Shown here piece after piece: positions 10,484 through 59,902 of a DNA stretch of 64,000 nt; position 1 is the stretch's first letter, and each line of letters begins with the position of its first letter. The stretch spans positions 18,015 to 82,014 of the forward strand of contig CAZEGF010000006.1 in the NCBI GenBank assembly GCA_964511965.1, read 5' to 3'. Position numbers and translations under genes: made by a program. A model generated the notes under the pieces. That model did not search any database. It worked only from the letters and a program-made list of their open reading frames with translations, and was not told where the DNA came from. This DNA comes from an uncultured Gammaproteobacteria bacterium. GTDB taxonomy: Bacteria > Patescibacteriota > Microgenomatia > Levybacterales > GWA1-39-11.

Positions 10484-11980
10484 TTATTTGACGCGGGCAA
10501 CTCGGTCGCCAGCCACTACAGTTCTTGTAAGGATGATTTCGTCCCCTTGAGAAAGTCCGGATGCAACTTGAGCATATTGACCAATAATCGAGCCAAGCTT
10601 AATCTTTTTGGTTGTAGCTTTACCATCCTTAATAACAAAAACATACGATGCATCAGCGCTTTGATAGATTGCATCTAGAGGAACAAATGGAACAGCAGTT
10701 GATGTGTCTGCATATCCAACAGGAAGTTCAACGGTAATAAATTCATTATTAGTCAAATTATTTTGAAAATCGGTTGGCACGTCAAAAATTACAGAATACA
10801 AAGACCCATCAGTTGCTTCAGTTGAGATATAAGCCGGTGCTGTTTTATAAGACTTTCCGTCAATAGAAAGAGTTGCCTCATCAACTTGCGATAGTTTTTG
10901 TGCAATTTCTCTTGGCACACGGGCAACTGCTTTAAGCTTTTGCGCACCATGAATAAGAGCAATTGGAGTTCCAGGATTTACCGCTTCACCTTCCGTAACA
11001 TAAATCCGGTCAACCACTCCAGCAAATGGAGAAGCCGGATACATTGTTGCTTCCTGGATTTGGGCAAGTTTTAATTGAAGTCCGGATATTTCAACTGATA
11101 GATTTAATGCTTTTTCCTGAAGATCAAGTTGTCTTTGTGTAAGGTCTTTGGTCATATTTGAAAGATCTGCAGGTGGTTTGTCTCCTGCTCCTTGATATTC
11201 GGATGCTCTAACTCCTGCTTGAAGTTGATTTACAGCGGACTGATATTGGGAAATAATTTGCTTGGTTTGCAAGATTTGTGCATCATTTGCACCACCAACA
11301 TTAGTTGATTCCAGAGTTGAAAGCGTTGAGTTAAGACTTGAAACAATATCCTGATTAAGTGATAACAATGATTTTGTTTCATCAATCGATTTTGAAGTTA
11401 TATCTCTCAATTGGTCCGAATTATCATCTGATTTATTAGCTATATCTCTTTGTTTTTTAATAACATCTTTTTGGATGTCTAAAGTGTCTTTTGCATTTTT
11501 ATTTGTTGCATATGCAATTTCTCTTTGAATACCGGCAGCATTTCCCCCCTGATAATTTGAAGAAAGAGAGACTAAAGTTGTTCCTTTCCCAACTTGTTGC
11601 CCTTCGCTAACATTTATGGATGAAACAATTCCTGGGGTTTGTGCCACAACTTTTATAACTCCGCTTTTCTCAATTTGAGCCTGGACCTTAACAGTTGGTG
11701 CAGAGCCTATAGAGTATGCAGCAACTTCTTTTTCCGGTGTAGTAACGGTAGCTTCCTGCTTAGGTTTTCTTAAAAATGAACCAACTACGATAAGAATAAA
11801 AATTACAAGAAGTACTACAAAGAATGAGGTCAAGGGCTTTTTATCAATGGTTTTACCTGCTCTTTTTAAGAGGTTTTTTACCTTTAATTTGAATGTTGAG
11901 AAATTACCAAACTTTTTAAAGCGAGTGAAGATCGGGGCAGACCTTTTTGAGCTTGGCAACCGCTTGATACGGTTTGCCAT
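10484..11980 (-). CDS. efflux periplasmic adaptor (HlyD/MFP family) with a long coiled coil
   Basis: N-terminal TM, a long heptad-rich segment, and a C-terminal beta-barrel region (GAQKLKAVARVP..., IKLGSIIGQYAQV). Lies immediately upstream of the RND pump. Confidence 0.75.
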   Translation of the reverse strand: MANRIKRLPSSKRSAPIFTRFKKFGNFSTFKLKVKNLLKRAGKTIDKKPLTSFFVVLLVIFILIVVGSFLRKPKQEATVTTPEKEVAAYSIGSAPTVKVQAQIEKSGVIKVVAQTPGIVSSINVSEGQQVGKGTTLVSLSSNYQGGNAAGIQREIAYATNKNAKDTLDIQKDVIKKQRDIANKSDDNSDQLRDITSKSIDETKSLLSLNQDIVSSLNSTLSTLESTNVGGANDAQILQTKQIISQYQSAVNQLQAGVRASEYQGAGDKPPADLSNMTKDLTQRQLDLQEKALNLSVEISGLQLKLAQIQEATMYPASPFAGVVDRIYVTEGEAVNPGTPIALIHGAQKLKAVARVPREIAQKLSQVDEATLSIDGKSYKTAPAYISTEATDGSLYSVIFDVPTDFQNNLTNNEFITVELPVGYADTSTAVPFVPLDAIYQSADASYVFVIKDGKATTKKIKLGSIIGQYAQVASGLSQGDEIILTRTVVAGDRVARVK

Positions 11981-11992
11981 AATTAAGGACAG

Positions 11993-12021
11993 ATTGTATC
12001 AGTTTTTAGCTTCAAAAACAA
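11993..12021 (-). promoter_or_regulatory. sigma70-like promoter with extended -10 (TTGTTT-N17-TGaTACAAT) for the HlyD-RND operon
   Basis: Minus-strand reading aCTTGTTTttgaagctaaaaacTGATACAATctgtcc, about 12 nt upstream of the ATG. The same TGATACAAT extended -10 recurs upstream of alaS. Confidence 0.4.
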
Positions 12022-12033
12022 GTGTGTTTTTCT

Positions 12034-12060
12034 GTCATTGCGAGCACAGCGAAGCAATCT
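12034..12060 (+). repeat. solo copy of the ~27-bp GIY-YIG-associated repeat (TGTCATTGCGAGCacAGCGAAGCAATC)
   Basis: Near-identical to 22695-22721 (reverse-complemented) and to the interrupted copy at 22345-22387. Confidence 0.7.
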
Positions 12061-12071
12061 CGTTCCTGTCA

Positions 12072-12300
12072 TCCGGGGCTTGACCCGGGATCCATTACAA
12101 CTTAAATATATTTTTCTCTTCTCTTGTGCCGACAAGAGAAGCAGAAGCTCTTTGCATGTCAAGGGTCGCTAATTTTCTTCCTTTGTGAAGGGTGTGAAGC
12201 CTACCCCCTCCTCGACAAGTTCGCGAGGAGTCCCCCCCGCCTGCACTGCAGTCAGAAAATTCGGGCGCGCATTCCTTGAAATGCAAAAAAAGACCAACAA
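12072..12300. other. GC-rich structured intergenic element (candidate ncRNA or element remnant)
   Basis: Local GC clearly exceeds the flanks. Stem-loops at 12072-12092 (ATCCGGGG-cttga-CCCGGGAT), 12119-12142 (CTTCTCTTG-tgccga-CAAGAGAAG) and about 12210-12232 (CTCCTCG-acaagttcg-CGAGGAG). Not matched to tmRNA, RNase P, SRP or tRNA motifs. Confidence 0.35.
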
Positions 12301-12322
12301 TCGATGATCTAAGGTGATTATT

Positions 12323-12344
12323 AAAAAAAGCGACGCTTTTTTGG
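12323..12344 (-). terminator. A/T-rich hairpin (AAAAAAGC-gac-GCTTTTTT) directly after the stop of the 12350..13084 gene; possibly bidirectional
   Basis: Perfect 8-bp inverted repeat with a 3-nt loop, flanked by A/T runs on both sides. Confidence 0.45.
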
Positions 12345-12349
12345 ATGGG

Positions 12350-13084
12350 TTACTCCGTGAATTTGAAAGTGGAGAGGATTTGATCAAAAATATTTTTTGG
12401 TAATTCTGGAAGATTATTTTTAGGAAAAAACTTTGGGTTAGGAAAGCCATAAAATAGGTAGTAATCTGTCTTGTTTACCTGAAAGGGAATATTTGTAATT
12501 GAGACCCAGGGTGAAGCAATGCCTATGGGTTGGTTGGGGATAAATGTACTAATATATTTTTTAGCTTTTAATCCTGAGAGTTCTGTGTCAACTATGGTGA
12601 TTTTTGTGTAATCATTGGATATTGGTGGACTAAATTTGCCCTTAATTATTTCAAAGAATTGTACTGGTCTTTCGTTACATAAAGCTTGTGGATTGTTCTT
12701 AATTGATTCTTGGTAACTTACCAATACAAGGTCTTGAGCACTAACTGTACATTCCTCATTCGACAAAAGAATACCACTTGGATATTTGAAACTAAAGCCA
12801 TCACCTTGATAGGTTTTCCAATCTGCTGTCGGATCTGGAGTTGGAGTGGGAGATGTTTGGGTAGCTATTGGAGTAGGGGTGGGTTTGGAAACAATTTTTA
12901 AAATTGGTTCGCGGTAAACATAGCCAGCGGCTGTACCTCCTGCAAGAAGAAGAAAAATTAGAATACCAATAATTGCTTTGATAGAAAATTTACTGGCAGG
13001 TTTTATTGGACTTGGAGTTTCTGAAACAACTGGGGGCGTTGGGTTTGGGATTTCGGAAACTGGTGGGTTTTGATCTTCTTCCAT
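12350..13084 (-). CDS. hypothetical membrane-anchored secreted protein
   Basis: N-terminal Pro-rich segment, then a TM (IIGILIFLLLAGGTAAGYVY), a PT-rich linker and a globular C-terminal domain. Confidence 0.4.
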   Translation of the reverse strand: MEEDQNPPVSEIPNPTPPVVSETPSPIKPASKFSIKAIIGILIFLLLAGGTAAGYVYREPILKIVSKPTPTPIATQTSPTPTPDPTADWKTYQGDGFSFKYPSGILLSNEECTVSAQDLVLVSYQESIKNNPQALCNERPVQFFEIIKGKFSPPISNDYTKITIVDTELSGLKAKKYISTFIPNQPIGIASPWVSITNIPFQVNKTDYYLFYGFPNPKFFPKNNLPELPKNIFDQILSTFKFTE

Positions 13085-18923: not shown

Positions 18924-21182
18924 ATGAATATTAAAAGAATACAACAATTACTGTCACTTACATTAATACTTGTTATATTTGTAGGAAAACTTGCAGTACC
19001 AATGGCTGTTCTTGCAGAAGATGCACCAACACCTCCTGCCGCACCATCTGCTCCTAGCGCACCGTCAGCACCATCTGCACCTACACCACCGGAACACAAC
19101 GACACTCCACCACCACCGCCTGCACCAAAACCACCCGTTAAAAATGACACTCCACCATCTGCACCAACACCACCACCAGCACCATCCGGTTCCACTGACG
19201 GACCAAGTGGTAACACACCAACTCAAAATCAAGAAGTAAATCCAACTACGACATCCGGAACCGGCGGAACAAATGGGAGTGGAAATGTAGGAGATACTAC
19301 TATTGGAACCGGGGAATCAAATGCTAACGGAAGCATTACAACAACGGGAAACAATAACACCGCTGTTAATGGAGGATGCAACACGTGTGCGGGTGGGAAC
19401 GGAACATCGGTTGGAAATTCGGGTAACGGGGTAGGTTCAAACAACAGCGCAACATCAAATGATAATAATTCAGCAACGACCGGCCAACACAACAGTGCAA
19501 ATGTTGCAAACAATCTTACACTTGGTAGTAATTCGGGCAACAATAACGCTTCATTTAATGTAGGTGATTCCTCAATAACAACTCAAGATGCTAACACAAC
19601 AGGAACCGTTATAACTTCTCTTAATACAAATGTAGATGGGGTTGCGGTTGCAACATTTGATGTAGCAGATAATCACACCGGAGACATTATACTTGCTCCT
19701 GGAAATGCAACAAGCAGCTGTACAAATGGATGTGGAGCAACTAACAATACTTCAAACACGGCAAACGGGGCTAATTCAACAAATAATGCATCAAACAATT
19801 CAACGAATAACAGTATTACAGACCAATCAAATAATGCTGTAATTGGAAGTACTCTTGATCTTACTGCAAACTCAGGTGATAACCAATCAAGCTTTAACAC
19901 CGGAGGAGATTCTTCAATAACAACAGGAGACGCAAATGTATCAGCAAATGTACTCACAATGGCTAACAATAATATCGCCGGAAATGTCCTTTACAACGTT
20001 GTTAATATATATGGTAACTTGGTCGGAGATATTATCCTTCCTCAATCAACAATTGACTCGCTTCTTTGCAACACTTGCGGAGGTTCATCGACTTCAAATA
20101 ATAAAAATGGTGACAATTCAACAAATACGGCTTCAAATAACACTACAAACAATTCAACTACAAATCAAAGCAATAATGCACAAATTGACAACAACATAAA
20201 TATAAATGGAACAACGGGAAATAATGACTCAAGCTACAACACGGGAGGAAATTCTGATATTCAAACAGGAGCTTCAAATGTTGTTGCAAATGTACTTAAC
20301 GTCGCAAATACTAATATTGATGGAGGAACATGGTGGTTGGTTATTGTTAACCAAGCTGGAAAATGGATTGGAAAGATTGTCGGATCACCTGACGGAGCTA
20401 ACATGGCTGGAAGTGCCGGAACAGAATTTGAAGTAGATCCAATAACAGGTGAAGTAACAGCAGTTGGTGCAAACACTTCAAATAGTGGAAATGGCGACAA
20501 TACAACAAATACAGCTTCAAACAACACTACAAATAACTCAACAACAACTCAAAGTAATGACGCTAAAATACAAAACAACTTAAATCTAACGGCAAACACA
20601 GGTGGTAATGCAACAAACTTTAATACTGGTGGAAATTCAAATATCAAAACAGGAGATGTTAATGTCATTGCAAATCTAGTCAACTTCGTCAACAACAACA
20701 TAACCGGAGGCGGTAAATTAGTTGTCACGGTTGTTAATGTATTTGGTAGCTGGATTGGAGACTTCGTAGCACCCGGACAACAAAAACAGGCACATAATAC
20801 TACTTCAGGAAGTTCAAACGGTGGAGGGTCAAATAACAACAATAATAATGGAAACTCAAATTCTGGAGGATCATCTATAGTATCCGGAGCTAAAGGAAAT
20901 GCTTTGATAACTGCAAATGTTGATAATTCCGGTAACACAAACACTTATGGCGCAGGAAGCGTTGAAGGTGCAAATACAACCGGCGGATCTACCCACAATG
21001 AGGCTACTGTTGCAAAAAGCGTAGGGCAAGACGGTTCTGCGACAGTAGCTAAAAAAACAATCGCAATAAATCTCGCATGGTTACTCCTTGCGCTTCCATT
21101 GTTTGGGATCGCAATGATTGCTAAAAAATCTTTTGTTCCTGTCCGAACACTCGCGATACGGGGAATACATCTCTTCTTGTGA
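18924..21182 (+). CDS. large secreted Asn/Thr/Gly-rich repeat protein with a Pro-rich stalk and C-terminal TM anchor
   Basis: Signal peptide, an (APS)n/PPPP linker, then about 130-aa repeats (..CNTCGG...NTGGNS.I.TGDANV.ANV..VGDIILP). C-terminal hydrophobic helix followed by KK. Confidence 0.7.
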   Translation: MNIKRIQQLLSLTLILVIFVGKLAVPMAVLAEDAPTPPAAPSAPSAPSAPSAPTPPEHNDTPPPPPAPKPPVKNDTPPSAPTPPPAPSGSTDGPSGNTPTQNQEVNPTTTSGTGGTNGSGNVGDTTIGTGESNANGSITTTGNNNTAVNGGCNTCAGGNGTSVGNSGNGVGSNNSATSNDNNSATTGQHNSANVANNLTLGSNSGNNNASFNVGDSSITTQDANTTGTVITSLNTNVDGVAVATFDVADNHTGDIILAPGNATSSCTNGCGATNNTSNTANGANSTNNASNNSTNNSITDQSNNAVIGSTLDLTANSGDNQSSFNTGGDSSITTGDANVSANVLTMANNNIAGNVLYNVVNIYGNLVGDIILPQSTIDSLLCNTCGGSSTSNNKNGDNSTNTASNNTTNNSTTNQSNNAQIDNNININGTTGNNDSSYNTGGNSDIQTGASNVVANVLNVANTNIDGGTWWLVIVNQAGKWIGKIVGSPDGANMAGSAGTEFEVDPITGEVTAVGANTSNSGNGDNTTNTASNNTTNNSTTTQSNDAKIQNNLNLTANTGGNATNFNTGGNSNIKTGDVNVIANLVNFVNNNITGGGKLVVTVVNVFGSWIGDFVAPGQQKQAHNTTSGSSNGGGSNNNNNNGNSNSGGSSIVSGAKGNALITANVDNSGNTNTYGAGSVEGANTTGGSTHNEATVAKSVGQDGSATVAKKTIAINLAWLLLALPLFGIAMIAKKSFVPVRTLAIRGIHLFL

Positions 21183-22288
21183 TACGAAAGGCGGTTATTT
21201 TCATAATCTGCCTCATTGCAAACCTCACATTAACCAATCATGTAAAAGCCGATGAGATTGTCGTTAATGTCAACGGAAACGGATCCGGATCAACTAATCA
21301 AGTACAAGTCACTTCTCAAAATACTACCCAAGTTAGTCAAAATAATGATGCAAGTGTAACAAATAATACGACTTCAAATGCAAATACCGGCAACAATAAC
21401 GCCTCAAATAATACCAATGGGAGTGCGACAATTTCAACAGGAGATGCCACTTCATCAACTGCCGTTAACAATCAAAATATTAATTCAAATGCTGCAGATA
21501 CTAATTGTGGATGCCAAAGTAGCTCTTCAGTTACAGTTTCAGGTAACGGAGCAGGTTCTAATAATTATGTAAATGGCTCAAATTCAAATTCTGCCTCCGT
21601 TAACCAAACAAATAATGCATCAATTCAAAATAACGCAACTACAAACGCCAATACCGGCTACAATGAAGCTTCTTACAATGGTAACGGTTCTACATTTATT
21701 ATGACTGGAAGCATTTACTCAACGACAAAAATAAACAACAAAAATATTAATAACAGCGCATACTTTGGTGCAACAGGTCTTGAGAGTAGCTTTTTATCTA
21801 TTTCCGGAAATGGGGACGGATCAGACAACTTAGTAGCATTTACCAACAACGTTAGCGTAGTTGTAACTAATACAAATGTAGCAACAATTAATAATAATGT
21901 AGAAAATAATTTAAATACTGGAGGAAATAAAACTCTTGGAAATTTGGGTGATGTAGCTATAGTAACCGGGGGGATCATAAATGATGTAACGGTTAATAAC
22001 GAAAATATAAATAGCAGTTTTGTAGAAGTTGTATGTGGTTGTAAAACTCCGGAATCACCGGAGCACCCAAATCCTCCATCCACTTCAACACCGGGAAGTT
22101 CAATTGTTCAGGGGTCAAGCGGTAGCTCAAGTTCAGGATCATCAAATGGAACCCCAGGAAATGTTCTTCCAGTTACCGGAAGTTCTATTCCATGGTCACT
22201 TTTTGCAACACTTGTGTTATTCTTCATGTTCCTTTCAGGGCTGTATCTGCGTTTCCATGGGGCTAATGCACCTCCATCAAGAGTTTAG
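21179..22288 (+). CDS. LPXTG-anchored Asn/Thr-rich repeat surface protein
   Basis: Signal peptide and three family repeats ending in NCGC/VCGC. The C-terminus is LPVTG, then a hydrophobic helix, then a basic tail (LYLRFHG): a sortase sorting signal. Confidence 0.75.
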   Translation: MIRKAVIFIICLIANLTLTNHVKADEIVVNVNGNGSGSTNQVQVTSQNTTQVSQNNDASVTNNTTSNANTGNNNASNNTNGSATISTGDATSSTAVNNQNINSNAADTNCGCQSSSSVTVSGNGAGSNNYVNGSNSNSASVNQTNNASIQNNATTNANTGYNEASYNGNGSTFIMTGSIYSTTKINNKNINNSAYFGATGLESSFLSISGNGDGSDNLVAFTNNVSVVVTNTNVATINNNVENNLNTGGNKTLGNLGDVAIVTGGIINDVTVNNENINSSFVEVVCGCKTPESPEHPNPPSTSTPGSSIVQGSSGSSSSGSSNGTPGNVLPVTGSSIPWSLFATLVLFFMFLSGLYLRFHGANAPPSRV

Positions 22289-22303
22289 AGTAGCCTTAAC
22301 CCT

Positions 22304-22325
22304 AAAACCCCGGAAGGGGTTTTTT
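22304..22325 (+). terminator. rho-independent terminator AAAACCCC-ggaa-GGGGTTTTTT
   Basis: Perfect 8-bp stem, GGAA tetraloop, T6 tail. Lies 16 nt after the stop of the LPXTG gene. Confidence 0.75.
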
Positions 22326-22344
22326 GATGGTAAACTTCTCTCTC

Positions 22345-22387
22345 TGTCATTGTGAGGAGTCCTGCGAAGTAGGACGACGAAGCAATC
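22345..22387 (+). repeat. GIY-YIG-associated repeat copy with a 16-bp internal insertion; inverted partner of 22695-22721
   Basis: TGTCATTGtGAGgagtcctgcgaagtaggacgaCGAAGCAATC. Abuts the GIY-YIG stop codon. Confidence 0.65.
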
Positions 22388-22722
22388 TAAAGTAATTCAT
22401 CATACAAATCTTTCCAATCTTTATTTTTTGTTTCAATCAAATCAATTTTTTTCTTTCTTGACCCTCCCATTATCTGTTTTTCCCGACTAATAGCTTCGTA
22501 TGGGGTCTGGAAAATTTCAAAATATACCAGCTTATGCACATTGTATTTAGAAGTAAAACTTTCAACAGCGCTATTTTTATGTTGCCAAACACGTCTTATC
22601 AAATCTTCAGTTACTCCCGTATATAAAACTTTATTGTTAAAGTTTGTAAGAATGTAAACATAATACTGTTTGTTTCTCACCAATATAGTATAAAGATTGC
22701 TTCGCTTCGCTCGCAATGACAT
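22387..22722 (-). CDS. GIY-YIG nuclease family protein
   Basis: YYVYILTNFNNKVLYTGVTEDLIRRVWQHKN is the GIY-YIG core, about 110 aa. The N-terminus (MSLRAKRSNL) is encoded by the repeat. An alternative start lies at 22743. Confidence 0.8.
   Translation of the reverse strand: MSLRAKRSNLYTILVRNKQYYVYILTNFNNKVLYTGVTEDLIRRVWQHKNSAVESFTSKYNVHKLVYFEIFQTPYEAISREKQIMGGSRKKKIDLIETKNKDWKDLYDELL
22695..22721 (-). repeat. GIY-YIG-associated repeat (reverse orientation; its reverse complement is TGTCATTGCGAGCGAAGCGAAGCAATC)
   Basis: Forms the 5' end of the GIY-YIG ORF and the upstream region of the sortase gene. Inverted relative to 22345-22387. Confidence 0.7.
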
Positions 22723-22744
22723 ATTGCGTGCTACAATACACAAA

Positions 22745-23302
22745 ATGAAACGAAATCTTCAAAAATGGGTTGGAAACATTTTGATCGCAATTTCCTTGCT
22801 GGGGCTTCTTTTCATTTATTACCCGGTTCTTAAGGAGTTTTTCTTTCCGCCTCATTTTACCGAAGCACAGAAAAAAAGCATTGGGTTTTCTATTGAAATC
22901 CCATCAATTAAAGTGTTCTCCCCGGTTATTGCCAATGTTGATCCATTCAACCAGCAAGAATATATTGAAAAGCTTAAAAATGGGGTAGCCCAGGCCAAAG
23001 GAACCAGTCTTCCCGGTCAAAAAGGTACTATATATATGTTCGCTCACTCATCAGATGTGCCATGGAGGATAACACGTTATAACACAGCATTTTTTAAATT
23101 AGATTTTGTTAAAAAGGGGGATAGGATCGTTTTGAGATATGAGGGTAAAGAGTATCGATATATGATTTATGATAAGAAGACTGTCTGGCCATCAGACACA
23201 AAATATTTGAAAGAAAATCAGGGGAATATATTGATTTTGCAAACGTGCACTCCGGTTGGAACTGCACTACAAAGACTATTAGTTTTTGCAAAGCCTAGTT
23301 AA
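22745..23302 (+). CDS. sortase family transpeptidase
   Basis: N-terminal TM, a His in MFAHSSD, and the catalytic LILQTCTPVG (TLxTC) motif. Adjacent to the LPVTG protein. The ORF-track start at 22697 reads through the repeat, so the ATG at 22745 is preferred. Confidence 0.8.
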   Translation: MKRNLQKWVGNILIAISLLGLLFIYYPVLKEFFFPPHFTEAQKKSIGFSIEIPSIKVFSPVIANVDPFNQQEYIEKLKNGVAQAKGTSLPGQKGTIYMFAHSSDVPWRITRYNTAFFKLDFVKKGDRIVLRYEGKEYRYMIYDKKTVWPSDTKYLKENQGNILILQTCTPVGTALQRLLVFAKPS

Positions 23303-23365
23303 TGATTAATGGTTGATGCTTGATGGTTAATTAACTATTAGTCATTTATCATTAGCGATAAATGT
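23300..23365. repeat. AT-rich imperfect palindromic TGATG-rich element directly after a stop codon (family member 1)
   Basis: TAATGATTAATGGTTGATGCTTGATGGTTAAT ... TTAACTATTAGTCATTTATCATTA. The arms are approximate reverse complements. Confidence 0.5.
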
Positions 23366-23439
23366 AGTGTATGGGGGAAGAACGGAAAACAAACTTTTCG
23401 GTTTGCTCAATTCTCCCCCCGGGTACACCTTGTCGGCGG

Positions 23440-23739
23440 TTAAGCTGTCACATTCTGTTCTTGCCGTATCAGGTCCTTGAGGGCTTCGGAGAACTCCGGT
23501 AAGTCTTGAATTGGCATTTCCCGAACGTATTCGATGGCGTTGTTAATGTCATCGATGGCCGCGTTAATGCAAGACAAAACCCATTTCCGCCTCTCTTCAG
23601 CCGAAGTTCCAGTTGGCAGAGGAGTGCCGTGGGGGGTGGCGAGGACGCGTTGGCTGTGAAGGACGTTGCTTGCCCCTTTGATTCGCGCCGCCGCGTGATC
23701 GAGTCTTTCCCACGCGTTGATGGTTTTGATCGAAGTCAC
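23440..23739 (-). CDS. hypothetical small protein (MTSIK family, GC-rich island)
   Basis: GTG start with a GAGGAGG SD 6 nt upstream. Paralogous to the 23791..24192 gene (shared MTSIKxxNA N-terminus and a W.L..NA.DD...A.E C-half). High-GC codon usage. Confidence 0.5.
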   Translation of the reverse strand: MTSIKTINAWERLDHAAARIKGASNVLHSQRVLATPHGTPLPTGTSAEERRKWVLSCINAAIDDINNAIEYVREMPIQDLPEFSEALKDLIRQEQNVTA

Positions 23740-23790
23740 TTTTTGCCTCCTCAGGCTTGCCCCTTCTACGGGGCGGAATTGGGACGAAAC

Positions 23791-24192
23791 CTAGTTCCCG
23801 TCAGATGGCGGGTTCGTGATTTCGTAGGTCTGCAGCTTGCTAGCTGGTTTCACTTGCGCAAGGCGAAAGGCTTCCGCGACTGTGCTGACACCGACGATTT
23901 GGAGTGGTCTGCGATTCCGTTGGCTGATCATGCTTTTCACCTCTTCAGAGAGAGGCGGGACTTCGCCGTCCGGGATGGACTTTATGTGTTCCATAGCGAC
24001 CCGAAGGTCGTCCATGGCGTTCATCAGGCCCAACATGAGCCATGTCCGGCTTCCGTCGGGCGTGTCGCTACCTGGGAGATCCCCAAGCTGCGATGCGATC
24101 AGGTTGGATTCCAGGGCATCGTAGATTTCACTGGCCCTGGCATTGCCTTGCCTGATCCTGTCCATTGCGTTGGTTGCTTTGATAGATGTCAC
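23791..24192 (-). CDS. hypothetical small protein (MTSIK family paralog, GC-rich island)
   Basis: GTG start with a GAGGAGG SD. Paralog of the 23440..23739 gene. Confidence 0.5.
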   Translation of the reverse strand: MTSIKATNAMDRIRQGNARASEIYDALESNLIASQLGDLPGSDTPDGSRTWLMLGLMNAMDDLRVAMEHIKSIPDGEVPPLSEEVKSMISQRNRRPLQIVGVSTVAEAFRLAQVKPASKLQTYEITNPPSDGN

Positions 24193-24447
24193 TTGTTGCC
24201 TCCTCAGGCTTGCCCCACTTAAATGGGAATGGTCGTAATTGTCACCGGTTACAGCCGGGTGAGAAATATGGTCGTAAGGATCAAGCCCAGGATCAGAAAC
24301 GCTAAACGCGCACCACCTCCTAGTTCCTTGATCATAGAGTTGAGAATTAGGAACACTCCCAACAAGCCAATGAACCAGGTATAAATGGTTGCCTCCTCAG
24401 GCCGATTTGGCCGCGTTGTACGCGGTATAGATCGTGAATTCAGATGT

Positions 24448-56293: not shown

Positions 56294-57565
56294 ATGGTTG
56301 CAAATGACGAAGCTTTAAAAGCGATACAAAAGAAATTGGTTGGTAAAACTCTTAACTATAAAGAGATTTATTCCATCATGGATGAAATTTCGCATGATAG
56401 ACTTGGAGATGTTTTAACTACTTATTTTGCCGCTTCCGGATATTCAAAAGGATTTACGTATGATGAGATTTATTTCTTAACAAAGGCTATGGTTGAAACC
56501 GGGGAGAAACTTCATTTCGAAGGGATTGTTGCAGACAAACATTCAATTGGGGGTCTTCCGGGAACAAGAGCCACTATGATTATCGTTCCAATTATTGCCT
56601 CAGCCGGCTTTAAAATTCCAAAAAGTTCGTCCCGTGCAATTACAACTCCTGCTGGGACCGCTGATTCAATGGAGTGTTTAGCAAATGTCACATTTGATGA
56701 AAAACAAATATATGAAATTGTAAAAAAGACAAATGCCTGTATTGTGTGGGGAGGAAGTTTTAAGATTGCCCCGGCTGATGACGAGATCATTCATGTTGAA
56801 GAACCTTTAGCACTTGAAAGTTTTGACAAAATTTTAGTGTCTGTAATGGCTAAAAAAATTGCTTTTGGTTCAAATCATGTTGTAATAGATATACCTTATG
56901 GTCCGACTATGAAAGTGCATCACAAAGAAGATGCAGAACTACTCGCTAAAAAATTCAAATATATAGCCAAAAGATTTGATATTAAACTTGAAACACTTAT
57001 CGCACATTCTCACCAGCCTGCAGGAAATGGTATTGGTCCACTTCTAGAAGCAAAAGATGCCTTGAAAGTTTTGGAGCAAACCGATGATAGACCATTGGCT
57101 CTTGAGAATAAGTCGGTTGAGCTTGCCGCCAAGCTACTTGAGTTATGTCTTGAGGATGCCGATAGTGATATAAAAAATGTTGCTGCGAAATACGAAACAA
57201 CACATGCCTGGGCGCACGACATTTTAGTAAGCGGAAAAGCTCACTCAAAAATGATCGAGATAATAGATGCTCAAAATGGTGACCCAAGTGTACTATCAAC
57301 CAAACTTCATGCAGGTCCTAAAACTAAAGAAGTAAAGACAGATAAGTCAGGTGTTATTAGAAGCATTAATAACAATAACGTTTCAATCGTAGCAAAAGTG
57401 CTTGGAGCCCCTCAAGATCATAGAGCTGGTCTATTTTTGAGAAAGAGGGTTGATGATAAAATTACTAACGGTGAAGTTATATTTGATATGTATTCAGAAA
57501 CAGATCACAGATTAGCCGAAGCCCACGATTCTCTACAGATGTTCCCACTTTATAAAATAGAGTAA
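56294..57565 (+). CDS. thymidine/pyrimidine-nucleoside phosphorylase family (AMP-phosphorylase-like)
   Basis: Glycosyltransferase family 3 signature DKHSIGGLPGTR and a TTPAGTADS motif. SD AAAGGAGGAGGG. Confidence 0.85.
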   Translation: MVANDEALKAIQKKLVGKTLNYKEIYSIMDEISHDRLGDVLTTYFAASGYSKGFTYDEIYFLTKAMVETGEKLHFEGIVADKHSIGGLPGTRATMIIVPIIASAGFKIPKSSSRAITTPAGTADSMECLANVTFDEKQIYEIVKKTNACIVWGGSFKIAPADDEIIHVEEPLALESFDKILVSVMAKKIAFGSNHVVIDIPYGPTMKVHHKEDAELLAKKFKYIAKRFDIKLETLIAHSHQPAGNGIGPLLEAKDALKVLEQTDDRPLALENKSVELAAKLLELCLEDADSDIKNVAAKYETTHAWAHDILVSGKAHSKMIEIIDAQNGDPSVLSTKLHAGPKTKEVKTDKSGVIRSINNNNVSIVAKVLGAPQDHRAGLFLRKRVDDKITNGEVIFDMYSETDHRLAEAHDSLQMFPLYKIE

Positions 57566-57587
57566 GCAAATATATAAGCCTGTAGTA

Positions 57588-57616
57588 TTGACTTTCCCCT
57601 CAAATTAGTGTATAAT
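57588..57616 (+). promoter_or_regulatory. near-consensus sigma70 promoter TTGACT-N17-TATAAT
   Basis: gtaTTGACTttcccctcaaattagtgTATAATgcaaccc, about 60 nt upstream of the GC-rich DUF262-like gene. Confidence 0.55.
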
Positions 57617-57677
57617 GCAACCCGCATCTCGTCAGAAATGATGAGGTAGCTCATTGACATGGCTAGGCTTACTTTGA

Positions 57678-58787
57678 GTGCCAGCCAAGGAGATCCCGGT
57701 GTCCGTTCGTCTTACCCACTTCGCCCTGGACGAGTTCGAATGCGCAACTGTGTTGCGTGGCGTACTCGATCCTGACACTCTGGAGGACATCCTAGTGGAT
57801 GTTTACCAGAGGGAAGTCCTCCACCAGGAGGGAAAGAAGCACAGCCTCATCGAGGCTTTGCGCAACGGCGCCCGCGTTCCCGATGTTGAAATCGGCATGC
57901 GCGGAGACAACTTCTCCATCGAGGGAGAAGGAGAGGGCTTCATCGTCCTCAACGACCCGGCCTACATCGTCGACGGCCTGCAGCGCATCAGCTCCGGTAT
58001 CGCTGTGATGAGAGAGGGCATTCGCCCTCACATCGGAGCGACTATCCACTTCAACACAGATAAGGTGTGGGAGAAGGATCGGTTCAAGACGCTGAATCAG
58101 GACCGCGTTCGTGTCAGCACGAACATCTTGCTCCGCAACTTGGGAGAGGAGAACGCCGCAATAGCGGTTTTGCTCCAACTCACCAGGTCGGATAAGGCGT
58201 TCGCCATGAACGGTCGTGTTTGCTGGAATCAGCAGATGGCTCGCAGCGAGCTCATCACCGCCCTCACCTTTGCGAAGGTGATTGGGAGGCTTCACATGCA
58301 CGTGGGTCCGACCGGCAACAGCCAGGTCGACCTGCTCGCTGATGGTCTCCAGACGGTAATGAATGCCGTTGGCAAGCAGGTTTTCAAGGACAACATCAAG
58401 ACGTTCTTCGACGTCATCGACAGGATGTACGGTGTCAAGCGCGTAACCTTTACGCGTGGGGCGGTGTACATGAGGGGGTCCTTCCTCCTTGCCTTGGCGA
58501 AGTTGTTCTCGAACCACTTGGAGTTCTGGAAGGACGAGAAGCGCTTCTTCGTTGAGGCGCCACTCGTACGGAAGTTGTCCACCTTCCCCATCGGAGATCC
58601 TCATGTCATCTCCCTTGCCTCCTCCGGAGGCAAGGCGATCGACCTGTTGTACCTCCTGATGGTGGAACACGTGAACAGCGGCAAGCGCACGAAGCGTCTG
58701 ACAGCACGTAACTACGTGCCGTTGTCCTCGGAAGTGGACGATGATGCTGATGACGGCGACAACAATCCAGAAGAGCCGGCTGCCTAG
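57678..58787 (+). CDS. DUF262 / ParB-like nuclease-fold protein with a DGxQR motif (GmrSD N-domain / DndB-like relative); GC-rich, likely acquired
   Basis: DVYQREV...HSLIEALRNGARVPDVEI...AYIVDGLQRISSG matches the DUF262 pattern (QR..W...LidSi..g.piP.i...iDGQQR). Clearly higher GC than the flanks. GTG start. Confidence 0.55.
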   Translation: MPAKEIPVSVRLTHFALDEFECATVLRGVLDPDTLEDILVDVYQREVLHQEGKKHSLIEALRNGARVPDVEIGMRGDNFSIEGEGEGFIVLNDPAYIVDGLQRISSGIAVMREGIRPHIGATIHFNTDKVWEKDRFKTLNQDRVRVSTNILLRNLGEENAAIAVLLQLTRSDKAFAMNGRVCWNQQMARSELITALTFAKVIGRLHMHVGPTGNSQVDLLADGLQTVMNAVGKQVFKDNIKTFFDVIDRMYGVKRVTFTRGAVYMRGSFLLALAKLFSNHLEFWKDEKRFFVEAPLVRKLSTFPIGDPHVISLASSGGKAIDLLYLLMVEHVNSGKRTKRLTARNYVPLSSEVDDDADDGDNNPEEPAA

Positions 58788-58871
58788 TCACTTAGTAGGT
58801 TTGTGAGTATAACCTGATGAACCAGTGTATCTGAATAAGACGCGCTGGGGGGTCGTAAACTCTCACCAATG

Positions 58872-58913
58872 GCCCCGCCTGCGCGAAAGCAAAGGCGGGG
58901 CTTTCTCGTTTTG
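58872..58913 (+). terminator. rho-independent terminator GCCCCGCCT-(12 nt)-AGGCGGGGC then TTTCTCGTTTT
   Basis: 9-bp GC-rich stem and a T-rich tail, 85 nt after the stop of the DUF262-like gene. Confidence 0.7.
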
Positions 58914-58948
58914 AACCCAAAATACCTTGTGGTAAAATAGGAAACGTA

Positions 58949-59902
58949 ATGCGAAAGTTCTCCATATTAATCATCCTTGCCGCTGTCATTTTCGTCTTTG
59001 TCTCACTTTGGTGGAATAACGGTTTATCTGCAGTAGATAGCCACGATAAATCTCAAAAATTCTTTGTTATTCCAAAAGGAACGGCTATAAGAACGGTCGG
59101 AAACGAGCTAAAATCCCAAAAGTTAATAAAAGATCCAGTTGTCTTCTTTATATATATTAAGCTTAATAATTTAGATCACGATATACAGGCTGGGTCATAC
59201 CGTTTGTCTTCATCGATGAGCCTGCCTCAAATTATGGAAACACTTGGGCATGGTACTGTTGACATATGGGTTACAATTCCAGAGGGGCTTCGCTCTGAAG
59301 AAATTGCGGCAATTCTTAAAGAAAGCATTCCAACTTATAAGCCTGAATGGATTGAACGTTTGTCTTCTGAGGAGGGATATCTTTTCCCTGACACATATCT
59401 GATACCACGTGATGCAACAATTGACTCAATAATTACCCTTCTTGAGAACAATTTCTACAAGAAAGTCATGACAGTTGGATTGACAAAGGATTCTCCACAT
59501 CTTAATAAAATTGTGACTGAAGCATCACTTATCGAGCGTGAGGCTAAATTTGAAGAAGATAGGCCGTATGTTGCTTCAGTTCTTGAAAATAGACTTGCTA
59601 TCGGCATGGCTCTGCAAATAGATGCGACTGTGCAGTATGTTACCGGTTACAATCAAACGACCAAGAAGTGGTGGAATCAGCCTGCTCCTTATCAGTTAAA
59701 GGTTTCATCTCCATACAATACATATATAAATACCGGTTTACCGCCTGCTCCAATATGTAATCCAGGTCTTTCTGCAATACAAGCAGCAGTGAATCCAAAG
59801 GATACTAACTATATATATTATGTAAATGATTCAAAAGGCAAGCTTCATTTTGCAGAAAATTTATCCGATCACAATAAAAATATACAAAAGTATTTGAACT
59901 AA
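58949..59902 (+). CDS. mltG: endolytic murein transglycosylase MltG (YceG-like)
   Basis: N-terminal TM plus YceG domain motifs (IPEGL..EI, GLPPAPICNPG). Confidence 0.85.
   Translation: MRKFSILIILAAVIFVFVSLWWNNGLSAVDSHDKSQKFFVIPKGTAIRTVGNELKSQKLIKDPVVFFIYIKLNNLDHDIQAGSYRLSSSMSLPQIMETLGHGTVDIWVTIPEGLRSEEIAAILKESIPTYKPEWIERLSSEEGYLFPDTYLIPRDATIDSIITLLENNFYKKVMTVGLTKDSPHLNKIVTEASLIEREAKFEEDRPYVASVLENRLAIGMALQIDATVQYVTGYNQTTKKWWNQPAPYQLKVSSPYNTYINTGLPPAPICNPGLSAIQAAVNPKDTNYIYYVNDSKGKLHFAENLSDHNKNIQKYLN

Follow-up and report, generated by a model that had tools for sequence, protein, structure and literature searches.

The window analyzed here, 64,000 nucleotides of contig CAZEGF010000006.1 (assembly GCA_964511965.1, positions 18,015 to 82,014), comes from an uncultured bacterium of the Patescibacteriota lineage in GTDB, and contains near 22 kb a small GIY-YIG nuclease gene between inverted copies of a hairpin repeat. 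We conclude that this locus is very probably a member of the Ssn/SRM system, comprising a 97-aa nuclease of the SsnA family with the flanking and solo repeats as its cognate Ssn-related motifs (SRMs). A recently described enzyme family thus accounts for the repeat-bracketed mini-gene. The system is already known; what the locus adds is a class of repeat that is missed by the search sequence with which SRMs were surveyed (PMC11893778).

SsnA of Neisseria meningitidis is described as a 94-aa protein that consists of a single GIY-YIG domain and belongs to family cd10448 (Chenal et al., Nat Commun 2025; PMC11893778). SsnA binds a 28-nt hairpin repeat, NTS (CGTCATTCCCGCGMAVGCGGGAATCYRG, which contains dRS3), only as single-stranded DNA (ssDNA) and only on its forward strand, and cuts a few nucleotides upstream of it; the enzyme is inactive on double-stranded DNA (dsDNA) and RNA. 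A GTC 5' of the palindrome controls cleavage, a C just 3' of it controls binding, and mutation of Y6, Y17 and E64 abolished cleavage. The ssnA gene is itself flanked by the repeat (NTS-ssnA-NTS), which is also dispersed in the genome. Loss of SsnA gave about five-fold more transformation with NTS-bearing DNA, and in Neisseria the family serves to restrict DNA that enters by transformation. At least one SRM lies close to 71% of homologues across bacteria, and 42% are accompanied by SRMs on both sides (all PMC11893778). Characterized enzymes come from Neisseria, N. elongata, N. wadsworthii and Wolbachia, and Ssn enzymes have been proposed as site-specific ssDNA-cutting tools. We made the link by recognizing dRS3 beside a Neisseria homologue and then searching the literature for dRS3 together with GIY-YIG; earlier queries on the repeat sequence, on LRFARND, on COG2827/UPF0213/YhbQ, and on GIY-YIG with RAYT or miniature inverted-repeat transposable elements (MITEs) returned nothing relevant.

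The nuclease and its catalytic residues

The open reading frame (ORF) at 22387-22743 on the minus strand matches Pfam GIY-YIG (PF01541, E 1.5e-15) over residues 26-99 of its 118 aa, with no second domain. The closest solved structure by sequence is 1zg2, the UPF0213 protein BH0048 (E 5e-5), and the NCBIfam and PADLOC libraries gave no match. A 94-aa protein of N. gonorrhoeae (locus L209, 1498-1782) stands in for N. meningitidis SsnA; we took it as the orthologue because the two agree in length, its Y6, Y17 and E64 occupy the published positions, and NTS copies flank its gene. Over 93 residues the window protein shares 44% identity with it (BLASTP, E 4e-28), and the same homology scores E 3e-18 in tblastn against a 7.3-Gb plasmid collection, the published cut-off being E < 1e-10 (PMC11893778). 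Equivalents of all three catalytic residues are kept in the window protein, as the second Y of YYVYIL, the Y of LYTGVT and the E of SREKQI, and correspond to the invariant columns Y8, Y19 and E66 of alignment A1.

The nuclease probably starts at the GTG codon listed in Table 1, which we favor because an orthologue (P0003) was called as a 97-aa protein beginning VRNKQYY and most homologues have 94-97 aa; most of the 120 best homologues fall within this length range and open with M-x-KQYYVYI. Readings of 111 and 118 aa, which start within or beyond the repeat, are probably over-extensions. Over-called homologues from cyanobacteria, candidate-phyla-radiation bacteria and others carry SLRAKRSNL, VIASTAKQS or HCEEAEGRRSNL at their N-termini, and therefore it is a DNA motif, not a peptide, that is conserved upstream of the nuclease genes. 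The original prediction had the repeat supplying the N-termini of two divergent ORFs, the nuclease and a sortase. The peptides MSLRAKRSNL and LRFARNDIL can indeed be read in the longest ORFs, but homologues and called orthologues place the real starts outside the repeat (GTG 22680 and ATG 22745 being favored), so that the repeat-derived N-termini are an artifact of taking the longest frame.

Repeats in the window

Scanning the window with the pattern GTCATTGYGAG-N(2-30)-CGAAGCAATC gave exactly three matches, and none of 100 shuffles preserving dinucleotides contained one; a 27-mer allowed up to three mismatches matched twice, with 0 expected. These are the three copies, two of them inverted near 22 kb, that had been predicted from inspection, with coordinates that agree to within 1 nt. 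The upstream copy reads GTC-ATTGC-GA-[GCGAAGC]-GAA-GCAAT-C, and its forward strand coincides with the nuclease sense strand. The last C of the downstream copy overlaps the nuclease stop codon (minus-strand TAG, 22389-22387), and the ATG of the 111-aa reading (22722-22720) overlaps the TGTC that opens the upstream repeat. We call these repeats ATTGC-type after their outer stem (Table 1). A fourth hairpin, related to them and absent from the original prediction, lies at 12067-12095 (+).

Table 1. Coordinates of the nuclease gene, its promoter-like site and the repeats in the window
Feature	Position	Strand	Remarks
ssn-like gene, single-domain GIY-YIG nuclease, 97 aa	22387..22680	-	probable GTG start 22680-22678; alternative TTG 22683
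Promoter-like site TTGCGA-N18-TATACT	22687..22716	-	consensus scan, 9/12 positions; no enrichment over shuffles
Upstream repeat, ATTGC-type SRM	22695..22720	-	minimal 24-26-nt form; exact pattern match
Downstream repeat, inverted relative to upstream copy	22346..22387	+	extended inner hairpin GTCCT-GCGAAGT-AGGAC
Solo ATTGC-type repeat, inner hairpin GCACAGC	12034..12059	+	54 nt upstream of divergent HlyD-like gene 10484-11980 (-)
Second repeat, different subtype (TGTCATCCGGGGCTTGACCCGGGATCCAT)	12067..12095	+	tandem, 7 nt after solo copy; matches published SRM pattern

The repeat forms a hairpin

We assembled a collection of 604 copies (414 distinct sequences) from the window, from 80 genome loci found via the protein, and from viral loci; the latter came from a scan of viral contigs (IMG/VR) for CATTGCGAG-N(3-33)-GAAGCAATC, which yielded at least 120 loci and at least 181 instances. 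The copies define a unit of about 28 nt, bounded by (T)GTC and C(TC), outside which there is no conservation. From 5' to 3' the unit consists of (T)GTC, one arm of an outer stem of 5 bp (ATTGC/GCAAT), an internal GA/GAA loop around an inner hairpin closed by a G-C pair, the other arm of the stem, and a C, usually followed by TC. The inner hairpin varies freely in sequence and in length (5-46 nt). The C of GTC and the 3' C are kept in nearly all copies, and G and T at positions -2 and -1, which lie outside the search pattern, are conserved in 94% and 95%.

The repeat forms a hairpin, as judged from covariation. Compensatory changes occur in the outer stem and the closing pair, for instance GC to AT in 29 copies and GC to CG in 10, and among 54 distinct 30-nt copies there are 40 double-change cells compared with 10.7 in shuffles, none of 500 shuffles reaching 40. 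Paired cells make up 81% in the proposed structure, compared with 14-50% after a shift of the partners by 1-3 columns. Mismatches are asymmetric between strands: on the forward strand 56 are G.T and 22 are A.C, an excess expected if one strand is recognized, and thus indirect support for recognition of the forward strand. In the window, a derived G-to-A change on the gene strand of the downstream copy turns one outer-stem pair into a G.T on the forward strand; at this position relatives have the canonical CTCGCAATGAC.

Most copies are singlets (333/604). Inverted doublets with no gene between them and a gap of at most 60 nt comprise 101 convergent and 50 divergent pairs. The repeat is present on replicons of Novosphingobium, Methylobacterium, Methylosinus and Nostocales, and absent from 5,426 E. 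coli genomes. The cyanobacterial small dispersed repeats of Elhai's work of 2008, which are not known outside one cyanobacterial subgroup, were considered and set aside for that reason.

Some replicons and contigs are rich in copies. On the 1.76-Mb replicon NZ_CP017076.1 of Novosphingobium resinovorum at least 40 places match a 30-nt repeat query, which suggests a large expansion in this alphaproteobacterium. Four IMG/VR contigs (L015, L038, L082 and L049) have ATTGC-type repeats in intergenic regions of phage-like gene clusters, with six copies on one strand in L015, five copies in L082, and four perfect tandem copies at a 33-nt period in L049; the nuclease gene is absent from these four contigs.

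The repeat is tied to the nuclease gene

The clade is represented here by 83 homologous genes from more than 12 phyla, whose proteins are 55-68% identical. An ATTGC-type repeat lies within 150 nt on any side of 71 of these genes, and on both sides of 52. Within 60 nt upstream, 53/83 genes have a repeat, which in 41 cases has the orientation of the gene at a modal gap of about 17 nt; within 60 nt downstream the count is again 53/83, with 36 copies inverted and a modal gap of 0-3 nt past the stop. The usual layout is a repeat, about 17 nt, the ORF with its stop, and an inverted repeat 0-3 nt on, and the unit of a gene between inverted repeats that had been proposed for the window is both real and recurrent. 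Nuclease genes often lie inside arrays of copies in alternating orientation, and where neighboring copies enclose an ORF the interval holds this nuclease in 52 of 102 cases, the others holding ordinary genes with no relation to it, phage structural genes being numerous among them.

The density of copies makes the same point. Within 500 nt of nuclease genes there are 283 copies, compared with 84 in the remaining 1.07 Mb of the same loci (1 per 12.8 kb), making repeats about 35-fold denser near the gene; the repeat is specifically tied to this nuclease. Among the matches listed, one of the at least 120 viral loci, which were selected by motif, carries the nuclease, so most copies there are far from any such gene. 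Plasmid records (24 with the repeat, 32 with homologues, 1 with both) are uninformative on co-occurrence; the nuclease gene of hosts with repeat-bearing plasmids may be on the chromosome.

The repeat varies along with the protein. Around more distant homologues (41-57% identity) the inverted flanking repeats have the same architecture in different variants: GTCATTCTGAG..CGAAGAATC in Planktothrix, GTCATCCCGAGGAACGAGGGATC in Spirosoma, CTCATTCCTGTG..CACAGGAATCC in Sinorhizobium, GTCGCCCCGTGCTTGACACGGGGC in Novosphingobium aromaticivorans, and CGTCATTCCCGCGCAGGCGGGAATC, which is dRS3, in N. gonorrhoeae. The Planktothrix agardhii homologue (plasmid p1, locus L207 1-3264; 57% identical) has its own repeat variant and a short tandem array, and its neighbors are a type IIL restriction-modification gene (MmeI) on one side and the DISARM helicase gene drmA on the other, a defense-island context.

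The window locus and its clade share several features with the Ssn/SRM system: a homologous single-domain GIY-YIG protein of about 95 aa (the system's range being about 94-100 aa) with the same catalytic Tyr/Tyr/Glu; a gene between inverted hairpin repeats of 20-50 nt, which are also dispersed and clustered; a directional repeat with GTC 5' and C 3' of the palindrome; and protein clades paired with their own repeat variants. They differ in host range, the clade including candidate-phyla-radiation bacteria, Cyanobacteria, Chloroflexota and others where published Ssn proteins are mainly from Pseudomonadati, and in the repeat itself, which has an outer ATTGC/GCAAT stem, a GA/GAA loop, and an inner hairpin that varies freely and spans 5-46 nt.

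Points that weigh against an Ssn/SRM assignment

Several observations count against the assignment. We tested the published SRM sequence as a regular expression built from the degenerate form HGTCWYN(0-2)YYVSBRHN(0-5)WNVSBRGN(0-2)RNCYNB, and it fits 0/3 ATTGC-type copies in the window and 0/604 in the collection; the stem begins with ATTGC where the pattern requires pyrimidines. Its sole match in the window is the second repeat of the 12-kb pair (1 match vs 0.07 in shuffles). A GA/GAA loop also interrupts the ATTGC-type stem, unlike the unbroken stem of NTS, so that details of recognition could differ; dRS3, the palindromic core of NTS that flanks the N. gonorrhoeae homologue, has in the same way a contiguous ATTCCC/GGGAAT stem (ATTCCC-N8-GGGAAT) unlike the looped one found here. 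Single copies are predicted to fold no more stably than shuffles (z -0.4 to +0.6), and structural support is therefore comparative, from covariation. Only four repeats in total are visible in the 64-kb window. Placement of the window protein in the SsnA family is by homology, and both ssDNA cleavage and a role in DNA uptake would, for this organism, be carried over from the literature.

We nevertheless prefer the Ssn/SRM assignment. The published pattern is a search heuristic derived from 29 genomes and not a definition, and its failure marks a variant of the repeat, not exclusion from the Ssn family. A published-pattern SRM lies near 1/83 genes of the clade, compared with 71/83 for the ATTGC type, and surveys using that pattern would under-count Ssn/SRM pairs accordingly.

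Expression of the gene, and an unlikely RNA-level role for the repeat

The promoter-like hexamer TTGCGA lies within the upstream repeat and TATACT ends 6 nt ahead of the GTG start, which suggests a predicted nuclease transcript that would be leaderless or nearly so. Spacers between repeat and start codon in the family often have a TATAAT-like box 6-7 nt before the start, and TANNNT-N5-8-start occurs in 16/83 family genes and in 4/83 shuffled controls, a weak hint of leaderless expression in a minority of members.

The same arrangement could be read differently, with the repeat acting at the level of RNA or transcription (as a 5'-UTR element, a terminator or stabilizer, or an operator or promoter) and linked to the nuclease only incidentally. 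The overlap of the upstream copy with the -35-like hexamer and the -10-like box in the spacer would suit this reading, as would the mostly intergenic placement of copies and the position of the downstream copy, which would fall in the 3' end of the transcript. Yet the -10-like box is downstream of the upstream repeat, so that this copy is probably outside the nuclease mRNA; copies show no orientation bias relative to neighboring genes (65 same, 60 opposite); the association of repeat and gene across phyla is tighter than a generic terminator would give; and purified SsnA bound neither RNA nor dsDNA (PMC11893778). At the gathering threshold Rfam has no family in the window or in six repeat-rich loci, and a permissive scan of 22250-22800 gave chance-level matches only. 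We dropped an RNA motif because of the missing Rfam match and the even orientation, and give this explanation very little credence. A kink-turn or hammerhead-like core, suggested by the GA/GAA loop, was dismissed on sequence grounds.

A stable gene unit among repeats that turn over

The unit was originally likened to a miniature homing or mobile element, a reading that is not supported. Related metagenome contigs, in two sets with nucleases 89% and 97% identical to that of the window, have the same order of sortase, nuclease and 367/369-aa gene, with both repeats present. The upstream copy is identical (100% kept in contigs L201-L205), and the downstream copy differs by one loop base in addition to the derived G-to-A of the window. 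We saw no target-site duplication, the sequences just outside the unit (CTCTCTC| and |ATATTGCG) having none in common, and the two flanking copies of the window unit differ in their inner hairpin.

Turnover is seen at 12 kb, where we compared the window (11950-12480, minus strand) with positions 1150-1720 of contig L212, whose HlyD-like neighbor is 84% identical. L212 has an orthologous ATTGC-type copy at the same place with the inner hairpin TCCCGATTAAATCGGGA in place of GCACAGC, the repeat beside it has a different form, and an extra unit of about 35 nt and another subtype (GTCATCCTGAGTGAAATGAAGGATC) corresponds to a clean gap in the window. Upstream of the HlyD-like gene there are at least 4-5 copies of several subtypes in L212 and two in the window. 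What had been taken for a solo copy, perhaps a transposition footprint, belongs to a tandem pair, in an intergenic stretch whose repeats come and go between related genomes. We conclude that single repeats turn over between close relatives and the gene unit is stable, which fits a domesticated nuclease better than an actively transposing cassette.

Adjoining the 12-kb repeats is a GC-richer segment (12100-12330) whose plus strand contains an imperfect hairpin, CTCTTCTCTTGTGCCGACAAGAGAAGCAGAAG. L212 retains this hairpin in part; the nuclease profile gave no match in this segment.

We considered whether the unit is nonetheless an autonomous or recently active mobile element, resembling an insertion sequence (IS), a MITE or a homing cassette, in which the GIY-YIG protein mobilizes the unit and its gene-less derivatives. 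The recurrent layout of a gene between inverted repeats, the shared geometry of the 101 convergent gene-less pairs, and the density of repeats near the gene would all follow from this, and the Ssn authors themselves described NTS-ssnA-NTS as IS-like, drawing an analogy to REP/RAYT/BIME and suggesting domestication (PMC11893778). Identities of 55-68% across very distant phyla suggest horizontal transfer, and the extra SRM unit in L212 and the altered hairpin of the orthologous copy would also fit. Set against these are the constant syntenic location of the unit and its two repeats across all the related contigs that were found, the missing duplication and the lack of anything conserved beyond (T)GTC...C(TC), the unlike flanking hairpins, and the predominance of singlets; moreover the family's sole demonstrated activity is ssDNA cleavage and not strand transfer. 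We therefore regard current mobility as improbable, and past mobility of the gene unit as possible.

Two specific classes of element were set aside. IS elements and MITEs have near-identical ends and a target-site duplication, which the unit lacks. Homing endonucleases such as I-TevI and I-BmoI likewise have a GIY-YIG catalytic domain in a small, self-contained-looking cassette, but they add a DNA-binding domain, show insertion polymorphism at a specific target, cut double-stranded intron-less or gene-less alleles, and come without dispersed hairpin repeats; the bare 97-aa domain, at the same position in all relatives found, led us to reject this class.

A closer parallel is the REP/REPIN-RAYT system, including bacterial interspersed mosaic elements (BIMEs), of repetitive extragenic palindromic (REP) sequences (Bertels and Rainey, 2011; PMC3116915). 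There too short extragenic hairpins are found singly, in inverted doublets and in alternating clusters, one nuclease-type gene lies between members of its own repeat family, and hairpins are recognized in single-stranded form. The enzyme differs, being a GIY-YIG nuclease here and an IS200/IS605-type tyrosine (HUH) transposase in RAYTs; REPs are mostly doublets where our copies are mostly singlets, and REPs are lineage-specific where the core of this repeat is nearly invariant across phyla.

Proposed activity

If the Ssn/SRM assignment is correct, the protein would bind repeats in single-stranded DNA, on their forward strand, and nick a few bases 5' of GTC, sparing dsDNA, RNA and the reverse strand. 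Such cleavage, confined to ssDNA and the forward strand, is what we expect of the window protein by analogy with the characterized Ssn enzymes. On the minus strand a cut is predicted immediately 5' of 22720; on the plus strand, cuts are predicted immediately 5' of 22346, 12034 and 12068. Since the two flanking copies face opposite ways, either strand, on becoming single-stranded, would be cut on one side of the gene. The likely effect in the cell would be fragmentation of repeat-bearing ssDNA, for instance DNA taken up in transformation, which would limit recombination around marked loci; that uptake or recombination of DNA would be affected in this way in this organism is suggested by Neisseria only.

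Neighboring genes and other features of the window

The sortase beside the nuclease (22745-23302) probably starts at ATG 22745, giving 185 aa, since the corresponding sortase in relatives is called as 185 aa. TACAAT precedes this ATG with a 7-nt gap (22732-22747), and the sortase, too, may be expressed from a leaderless transcript; the divergent promoters of nuclease and sortase would then share the region around the upstream repeat. On the other side of the nuclease unit, which alone separates it from the sortase gene, lies a gene for a 369-aa Asn/Ser/Thr-rich protein (21179-22288) that ends with LPVTG, then a hydrophobic tail, then basic residues, the make-up of a sortase sorting signal. The two are probably a substrate-enzyme pair.

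Between the stop of the 369-aa gene and the downstream repeat, AAAACCCCGGAAGGGGTTTT (22304-22325) resembles a two-way terminator for convergent genes. Our consensus scan did not call AAAACCCCGGAAGGGGTTTT at this position; in L201-L203 a comparable hairpin of other sequence (AAAACCTCCTGTTAAGGAGGTTTT) takes its place.

Beyond the sortase, positions 23303-24447 have a GC content of 0.47-0.49 against a background of about 0.37 and contain two paralogous minus-strand ORFs (99 and 133 aa) that both start with MTSIK and have no Pfam match. Relatives have a single gene of 163 or 199 aa there, between the sortase and a gene like the RNA polymerase alpha C-terminal domain, so that this region is variable. 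A second GC-rich patch at 57000-59000 (GC 0.46-0.54) may be foreign DNA; a 369-aa ORF within it has a weak match to GmrSD_N, below cutoff (E 0.0027). No tRNA or tmRNA target was found in the window.

Implications

The repeat is routinely mistranslated into spurious N-termini (MSLRAKRSNL, VIASEAKQS, LRFARND) in gene calls from many phyla. Its clade of nucleases is a candidate for a new ssDNA-cutting specificity, with a stem that tolerates arbitrary inner hairpins.

We add a broader suggestion, tentative and on balance doubtful: that the ATTGC-type repeat and its Ssn clade, spanning more than 12 phyla and including candidate-phyla-radiation bacteria, form a distinct and under-counted pair whose horizontal spread, as a self-contained and possibly leaderless cassette, may be continuing. 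Variability of the hairpin, and gain and loss of copies, would then reflect turnover driven by the nuclease. Because phage-like contigs commonly carry the repeat and a defense island houses one homologue, such pairs may serve to restrict single-stranded invaders.

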